Of a DNA stretch of 64,000 bases, positions 3,313-41,689 are shown piece by piece; the stretch's first letter is position 1, and every line of letters begins with the position of its first letter. The position numbers and the translations under genes were made by a program. Under the pieces are notes generated by a model. It was given only the letters and a program-made list of their open reading frames with translations. It ran no database searches and was not told the origin of the DNA. The DNA comes from a virus (taxonomy: Duplodnaviria; Caudoviricetes), in IMG/VR virus record IMGVR_UViG_2974656638_000001, positions 1-64,000 of that record, one strand, 5' to 3'.

Positions 3313-3338
3313 AGGGGGCTATGCTCCCTTTCTTATTT
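3313..3338 (+). terminator. Putative intrinsic terminator after terL
   Basis: AGGGGGC-TAT-GCTCCCT followed by a T-rich tract. Confidence 0.55.
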
Positions 3339-3368
3339 GTGTTATAATATAGACAAGGAGGTTTTACT

Positions 3369-4212: not shown

Positions 4213-4410
4213 ATGTTGCCATTCTATTCAATATATGCTATAATAATAGCATGTGTTATATACACAGTTATCTTTATTTTAGTAGTACGCAGAATGTATC
4301 GTAAAGCAGACAAACGAGAGAAGGAAAAAGAAGACATTCTTAACACTATGACAGAAATAACAGAGGAAATAAAAACATTTATTGGAGGAGAAAATAACAA
4401 TGACAATTGA
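4213..4410 (+). CDS. Small membrane protein (1 TM plus charged tail)
   Basis: Hydrophobic residues 5-25, then RRMYRK. Confidence 0.7.
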   Translation: MLPFYSIYAIIIACVIYTVIFILVVRRMYRKADKREKEKEDILNTMTEITEEIKTFIGGENNNDN

Positions 4411-5038
4411 GAACACGAAGACTTTAGAACAAACACTAAATACTGTAGCCGAGGAAAAAGATTATGACTTATTCCTATCAACGTTGGCGGGGGTAGTTAA
4501 ATCACTATACAAAGAGTACCAATTTCTTAGACAAGACCCAGCACCCGAGGATAAAACATCAGGAAACATTTTGATTTTCCAAATTTTCCGAGGAGACCCT
4601 GACGGTTATGCTAAAGATTTTGATACACTGTTTAAAATTGCAGTAGACAGAAATTTAGAGCACAGAAAAATATCCCAAAAATTCTTTGAATGGGTAGAGA
4701 AAGGTAAGTTCTTAGAGTTGGGTGATAACATCGTTATTAGCAGGGATGGTACAGGAGTAAGCTCTATTGTTGAGTCTGTTGAACTTAAAGTTTTTATTAC
4801 TTTTATGACTAAAAGTTATGCCGAAGAACGAGAAGATTTTTTAGCTAAAGAGAAGGAAAAGCAAGAAGAGGCTAAAAAGAAAGAAGAAGAGCGACTAGCT
4901 CTAAAAGAGGAATCGTATAAATCTTTAGGAGAGGCTACAGAAATGCTAAATACTCTCATGGAAGAGCAAGGTGTATCTCCTGAGGAGCTTGCTTTAGCTT
5001 TAGAACAGGGGAAGGAGAGTTATCGTAATGCACGATAA
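4400..5038 (+). CDS. Hypothetical protein
   Basis: GGAGGAG 4384-4390 supports ATG 4400. Confidence 0.75.
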   Translation: MTIENTKTLEQTLNTVAEEKDYDLFLSTLAGVVKSLYKEYQFLRQDPAPEDKTSGNILIFQIFRGDPDGYAKDFDTLFKIAVDRNLEHRKISQKFFEWVEKGKFLELGDNIVISRDGTGVSSIVESVELKVFITFMTKSYAEEREDFLAKEKEKQEEAKKKEEERLALKEESYKSLGEATEMLNTLMEEQGVSPEELALALEQGKESYRNAR

Positions 5039-5408
5039 TGAATTTGAAGTACCTGAGAGTGTTATTAATGCTTCTGCTACACCTTTTGAGGCGCCTGATA
5101 GAACAAAAGATACCTACCAAAGTTCATTAAAGAACTGGTTGGACAGAGTAAAATCAGTCGGAGATGCAGGAATGTCACGAGAGTTTGTTATTCGTATTCC
5201 AGCAAAGGCACTAGAGGAGAACAACCCAGAAGCTACCTTATTTTTAAAACAGTGTAACGAAATAAAAAGAAACCCTAAGTGCAACCTTCCTATTAAAATT
5301 GAAAAAACAGTAGAGAAGTACAAAGACAAGAAACACTTAATGTTAGACTTGGTGTTCACTTATAGTAATAAAACAGATATTGATGCAGTAAATAGTGTAA
5401 TAAAATAA
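5028..5408 (+). CDS. Hypothetical protein
   Basis: AAGGAG RBS; overlaps the upstream gene. Confidence 0.75.
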   Translation: MHDNEFEVPESVINASATPFEAPDRTKDTYQSSLKNWLDRVKSVGDAGMSREFVIRIPAKALEENNPEATLFLKQCNEIKRNPKCNLPIKIEKTVEKYKDKKHLMLDLVFTYSNKTDIDAVNSVIK

Positions 5409-5413
5409 CAAAC

Positions 5414-5467
5414 AGGTTCCTCTTTACGTCTGCTATATTAGATAGTAGAAAACGTAAGGAGGAATTT
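5414..5467 (+). promoter_or_regulatory. Late promoter (TGCTATATTA 5431-5440) inside an RBS-sequestering hairpin upstream of the endolysin
   Basis: 5414-5429 pairs with 5452-5467, covering AAGGAGG; inner stem 5430-5436/5442-5448. Confidence 0.75.
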
Positions 5468-5471
5468 TTAT

Positions 5472-6497
5472 ATGGTAAAATATACCGTAGAGAACAAAAT
5501 TATTGCAGGATTACCTAAAGGTAAACTAAAAGGGGCTAACTTTGTTATTGCTCATGAAACTGCAAATAGCAAGTCTACTATTGACAATGAAGTAAGCTAC
5601 ATGACTAGGAACTGGAAGAACGCATTTGTAACTCACTTTGTAGGTGGCGGAGGTAGAGTCGTTCAGGTTGCTAATGTAAACTATGTTTCTTGGGGAGCAG
5701 GTCAGTATGCTAACTCTTATTCCTATGCGCAGGTAGAGTTGTGCCGTACAAGTAATGCAACTACATTTAAGAAAGACTATGAAGTGTACTGTCAATTACT
5801 AGTAGACCTAGCTAAAAAAGCAGGTATCCCTATTACACTTGACTCTGGTAGTAAAACTAGTGATAAAGGTATTAAATCCCATAAATGGGTTGCTGATAAG
5901 CTAGGAGGAACAACACACCAAGACCCATATGCTTACTTAAGCTCATGGGGTATTAGTAAAGCACAATTTGCTAGTGACTTGGCTAAAGTATCTGGCGGAG
6001 GAAACACAGGAACAGCGCCAGCTAAACCAAGCACACCAGCACCTAAACCAAGCACACCATCTACTAACCTAGACAAACTTGGCTTAGTAGACTACATGAA
6101 CGCTAAGAAAATGGACTCTAGCTACAGTAACAGAGCTAAGTTAGCTAAACAGTATGGTATTGCTAACTATTCAGGAACAGCTAGCCAGAACACTACACTC
6201 CTTAGTAAAATTAAAGGAGGAGCACCTAAACCAAGCACACCAGCACCTAAACCTAGTACATCTACAGCTAAGAAAATTTATTTCCCACCAAATAAAGGAA
6301 ACTGGTCTGTGTATCCAACAAATAAAGCACCCGTTAAGGCTAATGCTATTGGTGCTATTAACCCTACTAAATTCGGAGGATTGACTTACACTATCCAAAA
6401 AGATAGAGGAAACGGTGTATACGAAATCCAAACAGACCAATTCGGCAGAGTTCAAGTCTATGGTGCACCTAGTACAGGAGCAGTTATCAAAAAATAA
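5472..6497 (+). CDS. ply: Endolysin, N-acetylmuramoyl-L-alanine amidase (Ply511/PlyP100 type)
   Basis: Amidase_2 motifs IAHETAN, HFVG, QVELC, SHKW, HQDP; PKPST linkers; C-terminal cell-wall-binding region. Confidence 0.96.
   Translation: MVKYTVENKIIAGLPKGKLKGANFVIAHETANSKSTIDNEVSYMTRNWKNAFVTHFVGGGGRVVQVANVNYVSWGAGQYANSYSYAQVELCRTSNATTFKKDYEVYCQLLVDLAKKAGIPITLDSGSKTSDKGIKSHKWVADKLGGTTHQDPYAYLSSWGISKAQFASDLAKVSGGGNTGTAPAKPSTPAPKPSTPSTNLDKLGLVDYMNAKKMDSSYSNRAKLAKQYGIANYSGTASQNTTLLSKIKGGAPKPSTPAPKPSTSTAKKIYFPPNKGNWSVYPTNKAPVKANAIGAINPTKFGGLTYTIQKDRGNGVYEIQTDQFGRVQVYGAPSTGAVIKK
6022..6256 (+). repeat. Short coding repeats (PKPSTPAPKPST linkers) in ply
   Basis: CTAAACCAAGCACACCAGCACCTAAACC at about 6022-6058 and 6224-6256. 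Confidence 0.8.
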
Positions 6498-6510
6498 ATA
6501 ATGGTAAACT

Positions 6511-6543
6511 AGAGGAGACTTTTATAGTCTCTTCTTTTCTTTT
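6511..6543 (+). terminator. Intrinsic terminator after ply
   Basis: AGAGGAGACT-TTTAT-AGTCTCTTCT plus T tract. Confidence 0.8.
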
Positions 6544-7398: not shown

Positions 7399-7412
7399 TT
7401 TAAAGAAATAAG

Positions 7413-7447
7413 AGTCTGCAAGGTATAACAACCTTGTGGGCTTTTTT
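7413..7447 (+). terminator. Intrinsic terminator
   Basis: AGTCTGCAAGGT-N6-ACCTTGTGGGCT plus T tract. Confidence 0.8.
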
Positions 7448-7451
7448 ATTA

Positions 7452-7461
7452 TGCTATATTA
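7452..7461 (+). promoter_or_regulatory. Late promoter motif TGCTATATTA
   Basis: Same motif precedes ply, the protease and cps. Confidence 0.65.
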
Positions 7462-35341: not shown

Positions 35342-35402
35342 AGTAAAAATTATGGTATAATAGAGATAGGGCACAAAGTAGTGCCTTATCTTTGCTATAT
35401 TA
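35333..35402 (+). promoter_or_regulatory. Dual promoter module: TTTCCA-17-(TG)TATAAT, hairpin 35364-35391, late TGCTATATTA 35393-35402
   Basis: Same spacing as the module at 19353-19422. Confidence 0.6.
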
Positions 35403-41589: not shown

Positions 41590-41615
41590 AGTATGTTTAA
41601 ACTATATAGGTAATT

Positions 41616-41644
41616 AAGACTAGGACTAATATCCTAGTCTTTTT
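41616..41644 (+). terminator. Terminator closing the structural module, followed by TGTTATAATA (41646-41655)
   Basis: AAGACTAGGA-N6-TCCTAGTCTT plus TTT. Confidence 0.8.
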
Positions 41645-41689
41645 ATGTTATAATAAAGATATAGTAAATATATTTGGAGGAGTACATTA

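Follow-up and report, generated by a model that had tools for sequence, protein, structure and literature searches.

Phages P100 and A511 are workhorse Listeria biocontrol and reporter phages, and Ply511 and PlyP100 are heavily used enzymes; no account is known to us of how phages of this type keep their lysis genes silent up to the end of infection. The DNA immediately upstream of the endolysin gene ply, where one hairpin contains both the Shine-Dalgarno (SD) sequence of the gene and a late-promoter motif, raises the question of what becomes of RNA that arrives there from upstream genes, and of how ply is then expressed. We analyzed this locus in a window of 64,000 nucleotides, with which a phage genome of 131,384 bp begins.

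Bases 5000–6500 were 97–99% identical to 32 Listeria Pecentumvirus genomes (LP-048, cka15, AG20, and others), which belong to the Herelleviridae, Jasinkavirinae; the phage is a P100/A511-type Listeria phage. The gene order leads from the large terminase gene through three or four small genes to the endolysin gene, and from there through more genes to the portal gene. In 32 Listeria Pecentumvirus records (97–99% identity), ORF 5472–6497 carries the label endolysin or amidase. The features of the locus are collected in Table 1.

Table 1. Features at and around the ply leader (window coordinates)
Feature	Position	Strand	Remarks
Promoter motif TGTTATAATA	3340..3349	+	immediately past the terminator downstream of the large terminase gene
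Near-consensus sigma-A-type promoter, TTGCCA-17-TATAAT with TG	4216..4245	+	within the upstream unit
Upstream hypothetical ORF, 126 aa	5028..5408	+	last gene of the unit after the large terminase gene
5' arm AGGTTCCTCTTTACGT	5414..5429	+	anti-SD CCTCTT at 5419–5424; only in RNA started upstream
Apical stem and 5-nt loop	5430..5448	+	5430–5436/5442–5448, 7 pairs, 1 G·U; loop 5437–5441
Putative late promoter, extended −10 box TGCTATATTA	5431..5440	+	exact match to the CKA15 consensus
Predicted late transcription start	5445..5448	+	from motif geometry (CKA15, Kayvirus)
3' arm ACGTAAGGAGGAATTT	5452..5467	+	holds SD AAGGAGG, 5456–5462
T5 run TTTTT, U-tract like that of a terminator and SD-to-AUG spacer	5465..5469	+	directly 3' of the stem
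Small 7-bp hairpin around the endolysin AUG	5471..5489	+	−5.8 kcal/mol, z −3.3
Endolysin gene ply, Ply511/PlyP100-type N-acetylmuramoyl-L-alanine amidase, 341 aa	5472..6497	+	ATG 5472–5474
Terminator-like hairpin and T-run	6511..6535	+	closes the one-gene endolysin unit

A stable RNA hairpin encloses the SD sequence of ply

The 54 nt from 5414 to 5467 folded in RNAfold into a 23-bp hairpin of −26.8 kcal/mol. The corresponding value for 200 dinucleotide shuffles was −9.7 ± 2.4 kcal/mol (z −7.2; 0 of 200 as good), and the hairpin was kept when folded in a 191-nt context. Its lower stem (5414–5429/5452–5467) comprises 16 pairs, three of them G·U, and a 3-nt A bulge lies at 5449–5451. A first-pass annotation of this DNA had proposed precisely these pairings, together with an inner stem at 5430–5436/5442–5448 that extends the helix to about 23 bp and burial of the sequence AAGGAGG; the RNAfold structure reproduced them coordinate for coordinate. 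In this predicted fold of the long transcript, AAGGAGG (5456–5462) is paired along its whole length. When RNA 5446–5520 was folded, the same SD positions were unpaired. The small hairpin around the start codon is expected in long and short transcripts alike, and on this folding it might damp translation to some extent.

All four non-Watson-Crick pairs of the ply hairpin are G·U, and the plus strand folded at −26.3 kcal/mol, compared with −16.9 kcal/mol for the minus strand. These G·U pairs and the strand asymmetry point to an RNA-level structure rather than a DNA operator. Across seven Pecentumvirus sister genomes, one hairpin position was variable, compared with 11 positions in the flanking coding sequence, and the single hairpin variant (5423 T>C) turns a U·G pair into C-G.

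A late-promoter motif lies at the apex of the hairpin

According to the CKA15 study (PMC12282133), TGCTATATTA is the late-promoter consensus of this P100-like phage, derived from start sites mapped by ONT-cappable-seq. The first-pass annotation had placed a late motif at the apex of the stem, and an exact copy of this published consensus indeed occupies 5431–5440. Allowing at most one mismatch, the motif occurred 23 times in the window, compared with 9.5 ± 2.9 expected; exact copies in the genome numbered nine, all on the plus, coding strand. By eye, no −35 element was visible at the ply promoter, the sequence AACAGG at 5411–5416 being unlike TTGACA. The hallmarks of a Herelleviridae late promoter, namely an extended −10 box TG(C/T)TATATTA that lacks a −35 element and stands on the coding strand ahead of a late gene, are present at ply.

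In the same study, a MAST motif scan placed a putative late promoter ahead of the endolysin gene; the start-site pipeline gave no call there, and the motif scan alone did (PMC12282133). In Kayvirus late promoters, which carry TGTTATATTA, the start nucleotide lies about 6 bp past the 10-nt box (PMC7698491). This spacing would put the ply start at about 5445–5448, 3' of the entire 5' arm, in agreement with the earlier suggestion of late transcripts that begin near 5446 and lack that arm; the SD sequence was free in the fold of such a short leader. Endolysin RNA of CKA15 is reported to rise significantly from 25 to 40 min, when it peaks, and RNA of the upstream gene CKA15_094 is described as similar at both times (PMC12282133). 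This time course fits insulation of the endolysin gene from a unit activated earlier.

The hairpin has features of an intrinsic terminator

The first-pass annotation had not noted the T5 run behind the stem. The stem at 5417–5464 has an energy of −23.8 kcal/mol and is followed by TTTTTAT, so that it presents the stem-loop and U-rich tract of an intrinsic terminator. It also stands at the end of a transcription unit: the stop codon of ORF 5028–5408 (5406–5408) lies 6 nt ahead of the hairpin base. A T5 run in the spacer between SD and start codon was found in only 3 of the 82 GGAGG-led genes of the genome, and no comparable hairpin was found at the other two (86418 and 88350). A d'Aubenton-Carafa-type formula, used as a relative measure only, gave 7.9 for the ply hairpin versus 5.4 and −1.2 for neighboring terminators. 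Because of the bulge, a simple terminator scan did not pick up the ply hairpin; with its long, AT-rich, and bulged stem, it is not a textbook terminator.

The GenBank record of cka15 labels the equivalent of 5417–5471 "terminator", on an unstated basis that may be purely computational. In positions 1–50,000 of this record, every "terminator" feature was on the plus strand, even within minus-strand gene blocks, which suggests unreviewed computational annotation. The approximately 11 such features in the first 50 kb agree with neither the 66 nor the 13 of the CKA15 paper, the former being its count of termination sites (PMC12282133); the supplement of that paper tabulates neither transcription starts nor termination sites.

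Two promoters are likely to send RNA into the ply hairpin, one being the TGTTATAATA motif at 3340–3349 and the other the sigma-A-type promoter at 4216–4245. Elsewhere, terminator hairpins adjoin TG(C/T)TATA(A/T)TA promoters without a spacer, at 3313–3349, 7410–7461, and 35366–35402 of the window and at about 41,600–41,655 of the genome, and a terminator directly abutting a promoter appears to be the standard separation of transcription units in this genome. At ply, the two elements are nested, whereas they are sequential at these other junctions. Outside the window, at about 94,729–94,796 of the genome, a sigma-A-like promoter (TTGACT ... TGCTATAAT) was found within an 18-bp near-perfect palindrome (−30.7 kcal/mol) that is not followed by a T-run; it could be an operator or an opposite-strand terminator.

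Related hairpins precede holin genes of Enterococcus phages

When the ply leader was searched with blastn, a 48-nt stretch of unannotated DNA matched at 83% identity in 32 records, of which 31 bear the name of an Enterococcus phage. The phiEF24C copy sits after the sigma-factor gene and before the holin gene ORF067, and the leader there reads anti-SD arm, CTGCTATATTAGCAGTAGAAA, SD arm, U6, and then GTG (−31.8 kcal/mol, z −7.4); the tight spacing between stop codon and stem recurs in this phage. The module common to the holin leaders of phiEF24C, Revolver, and TJE2-type phages consists of an anti-SD arm, CTGCTATATTAG..GTAGAAA, an SD arm, U5–6, and the start codon. Variants beyond that of phiEF24C were found in Revolver and in a Schiekvirus type (TJE2, phage 163, and several IMG/VR contigs), and a U5–6 run stands behind every strong member of the hairpin family. 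The holin hairpins of the Enterococcus phages folded equally well on both strands.

Because MAFFT misaligned the 5' arms by one base, an SD-anchored pair table and an alignment fitted to a covariance model were used. In the comparison anchored on GGAGG, five stem positions had changed on both sides with pairing kept, and A-U to G-C and U·G to C-G changes were seen within lineages. In the model-fitted alignment, 99% of cells were paired, a level that 0 of 500 shuffles reached, and slid controls gave 38–51%; some of the double changes counted on this alignment are register artefacts, and the sequence variants compared are five, from three lineages. Covariation, named in the first-pass annotation as a check on its hairpin, is seen in the Enterococcus holin leaders as compensatory stem changes. 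With a covariance model trained on just two holin leaders, the ply leader was recovered over its full length at 41.5 bits (E ~3e-10) as the sole match in the 131-kb genome, and the phage's own holin leader was not detected by this model.

The holin homologue of this phage lies at 74.4 kb, behind a sigma-factor gene as in phiEF24C and about 69 kb from ply, in line with the earlier remark that no obvious holin gene is adjacent. Its leader has the late motif and the extended core ACGTCTGCTATATTAGA...TAGAAA in common with the ply leader; the hairpin there is a weak one (−17.5 kcal/mol, z −2.7), and no U-run follows it. One missing T, by which the T-run GTTATTTG appears as GTTATTG, breaks the holin ORF itself (approximately 74,409–74,773, L003:2910-3274; this lies beyond the window) into two frames. 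LP-048 carries an intact 126-aa ORF annotated "holin", and the split could reflect either a genuine frameshift or an error made in sequencing this record.

Endolysin leaders and the distribution of nested promoters

The endolysin gene of phiEF24C (ORF009) is syntenic with ply and is preceded by a hairpin (L150:5326-5385; −25.6 kcal/mol, z −8.2) in which TGCTATATTA is nested and which is followed by UCUUUUUU; the SD sequence lies about 20 nt downstream, outside the stem. The leader of the TJE2 amidase gene (ON506928 89837–89901, minus strand) likewise has a nested late motif, a U-run, and an SD sequence outside the stem, and its stem sequence is unrelated. SD occlusion is therefore not constant among these leaders. 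In Lactobacillus phage 521B (L267:2403-2510), a hairpin CTCCCCCTT...AAGGGGGAT with CCTATATTA in its loop stands just ahead of the lysin gene, and we counted this leader with those of phiEF24C and TJE2 as a hairpin, a nested late-type motif, and a U-run before an endolysin gene. The 521B lysin frame extends without a stop as far back as an ATT at 2447, immediately after the 3' arm; the additional residues (..RLKQLLLGISILVASLLMIGF..) resemble a signal or membrane anchor in sequence, and the true start may lie upstream of the one annotated at 2507. We set aside contigs of 114–130 kb with an amidase 42–48% identical, where terminator and promoter follow one another in sequence and are not nested. 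The searches for related loci with the endolysin and the holin returned few loci.

Under a fixed criterion, a motif counted as nested when 12 or more pairs enclosed it and its 74-nt segment folded at −18 kcal/mol or below. This genome and phiEF24C together have 18 exact late motifs, of which 3 were nested by this measure, namely those at ply, the phiEF24C endolysin gene, and the phiEF24C holin gene. Nested motifs were thus present at 3 of 4 lysis-gene sites versus 0 of 14 others (Fisher p ~0.005, hand arithmetic). Nesting is not confined to lysis genes, since TGTTATAATA lies in a terminator loop at the 45.7-kb structural/replication junction of phiEF24C.

A scan of IMG/VR for TGCTATATTAG..TAGAAA gave mostly chance matches, and the extended core was found in no lineage beyond the Listeria and Enterococcus Herelleviridae. 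The matches listed from a second scan, for CCTC..TGYTATAWTA..GGAGG, are a biased sample because the pattern required CCTC and GGAGG. Among the matches listed were many sigma-A-type promoters nested in SD-pairing hairpins, with an anti-SD sequence in the spacer right after TTGACA, pairing over 10–14 bp with the next SD and often followed by a T-run (for example L082:10443-10500, L032:978-1030, L096, L036, L011, and L084). The genes behind them include those for DNA polymerase, helicase, dNMP kinase, and endonuclease.

A proposed insulator and its alternatives

What the analysis shows is the predicted structure, the motif, and the U-run, a conservation that includes compensatory changes, and an SD left unpaired when the short leader is folded. 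The start site, the termination, and the translational silencing at ply are inferences from these. On balance, we lean toward reading the ply hairpin as an insulator with two locks and one key, made up of a terminator, SD occlusion, and the gene's own late promoter. RNA from the upstream, terminase-side genes would carry both arms and form the long stem followed by U5. Most of this incoming RNA would end just ahead of the AUG, by intrinsic termination, and in RNA that reads through, the SD would be held by the anti-SD arm, a translational occlusion of the T4 gene e type. The key would be the apical late promoter, whose RNA, beginning at about 5445–5448, would lack the 5' arm and would therefore neither terminate nor hide its SD. 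Since the hairpin would be bypassed by its own promoter only, endolysin output would be set solely by that late promoter. The first-pass annotation had seen in the hairpin a lysis-timing catch that leaves read-through RNA silent for ply. The pairing of the SD in long RNA supports the silence of such RNA, but the U5 tract and the cka15 label suggest that upstream RNA mostly stops before the AUG. The upstream promoters are of middle/late type and the upstream genes look middle/late, not early, so the catch may serve to set the dose or to insulate the gene as much as to time lysis.

That the lock is purely translational, as the first-pass annotation had it, with upstream RNA reading into ply untranslated and the U-run serving as an AT-rich spacer only, strikes us as rather unlikely. 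The SD is fully paired in the long RNA and free in the short leader, compensatory changes keep SD pairing in the Enterococcus holin leaders, and there is documented precedent in T4 e, soc, 49, and I-TevI (PMC3014915). Yet the T5 spacer is rare among the genes of this genome although U5–6 follows every strong family member, the sister record cka15 says terminator, and the phiEF24C and TJE2 endolysin hairpins retain the U-run and the nested promoter but lose SD pairing. We also regard as unlikely the converse explanation, by which the hairpin is a terminator only, with a promoter packed into its loop, and the SD pairs only because terminator, promoter, and ribosome-binding site are squeezed into 63 nt of spacer, without any consequence for expression. 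It draws on the routine abutment of terminators and promoters in this genome and on hairpins that nest a promoter without the SD, namely those before the endolysin genes of phiEF24C and TJE2 and at the 45.7-kb junction of phiEF24C; against this, read-through RNA with its SD inside a 23-bp stem would be occluded on physical grounds, and three lineages retain the SD in the arm even though the same genomes also have a layout that puts it 20 nt downstream.

We give very little credence to a palindromic operator acting at the DNA level, where a dimeric phage regulator would bind the inverted repeat at the −10 box and gate the lysis-gene promoters. Inverted repeats do lie on either side of the −10 element, the Enterococcus holin hairpins fold alike on both strands, and the extra bases around the box (ACGTCTGCTATATTAGA) are common to the ply and holin leaders. 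But the imperfect pairs of ply are all four G·U and its opposite strand folds 9 kcal/mol worse, the arms diverge with pairing kept, a pattern contrary to that expected of a site recognized by a protein, and SD and anti-SD account for the content of the arms. Translational coupling is, in our estimate, just as improbable: ribosomes terminating on the upstream ORF would melt the hairpin so that ply is translated from the long mRNA. The stop codon lies 6 nt from the stem base and equally close in phiEF24C, but by footprint geometry a terminating ribosome would reach the weak A-U and G·U base pairs (about 5414–5418) and not the CCUC core of the anti-SD, and the nested promoter and U-run would be left without explanation.

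Judged from the sequences, the likely common denominator of the relatives is the hairpin with U-run and nested promoter, and SD-in-arm appears as an added layer, found at ply here and at the holin gene in the Brockvirinae. We tentatively entertain a broader proposal, which we hold possible rather than probable: the Herelleviridae of Listeria, Enterococcus, and Lactobacillus may share a lysis-gene insulator that has moved between holin and endolysin genes, leaving at least one lysis gene double-locked (ply in Pecentumvirus, the holin gene in Brockvirinae). The full form of this insulator would comprise a terminator hairpin, a late promoter nested in it, and an SD as its 3' arm. More widely, promoters within SD-occluding terminator hairpins may be common and undescribed in phages of Firmicutes, where they would make genes deaf to upstream transcription.

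Significance and comparison with known systems

A cis element that would stop and silence incoming RNA and be bypassed only from its own late promoter amounts to a concrete and testable mechanism. It would mean that logic of the T4 style arose in an unrelated phage family of Gram-positive hosts, it has a practical bearing on payload insertion near ply or the holin gene, and it would offer a compact natural insulator part of about 60 nt that combines terminator, promoter, and ribosome-binding site. Our literature search found no description of the ply hairpin, and the passages searched in PMC12282133 and PMC7698491 contain no mention of a promoter inside an SD-pairing hairpin or of its recurrence at lysis genes of other genera.

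Compared with the Herelleviridae late promoters of CKA15/P100 (TGCTATATTA) and Kayvirus (TGTTATATTA), the ply promoter matches the CKA15 consensus exactly and shows no −35 element, and its site at the endolysin gene is already listed as putative, by motif scan, in PMC12282133. Like Rho-independent terminators, the hairpin has a stable stem and a T-run right after a stop codon; unlike them, its 23-bp stem is bulged, encloses a promoter, and has the SD of the next gene as its 3' arm. The ply leader also resembles the Brockvirinae holin leaders (phiEF24C ORF067, Revolver, and the TJE2/EFDG1 type), in which the same module stands in the same order before a lysis gene. The ply module differs from these in driving an endolysin gene, in arms that have diverged by compensatory changes, and in an apical stem that pairs in another register.

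In T4, the SD sequences of gene e (lysozyme), soc, 49, and I-TevI are sequestered by a hairpin in RNA started upstream (McPheeters et al. 1986; reviewed in PMC3014915), and the first-pass annotation was right to cite gene e as precedent; in function, gene e is the nearest analogue of the ply leader. As in gene e, the SD of a lysis gene would be held in a hairpin of upstream transcripts, and the late promoter is predicted to be placed so that late RNA lacks the 5' arm and can be translated. Unlike gene e, ply belongs to an unrelated phage of the Herelleviridae of Gram-positive bacteria, its promoter is an extended −10 box TGCTATATTA in place of the T4 TATAAATA, its hairpin is followed by a U-run as in an intrinsic terminator, and the incoming RNA is probably middle/late, not early. 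By this comparison, the ply hairpin would most likely be a variant of the T4 gene e logic, not of T4 lineage, that is fused with an intrinsic terminator.
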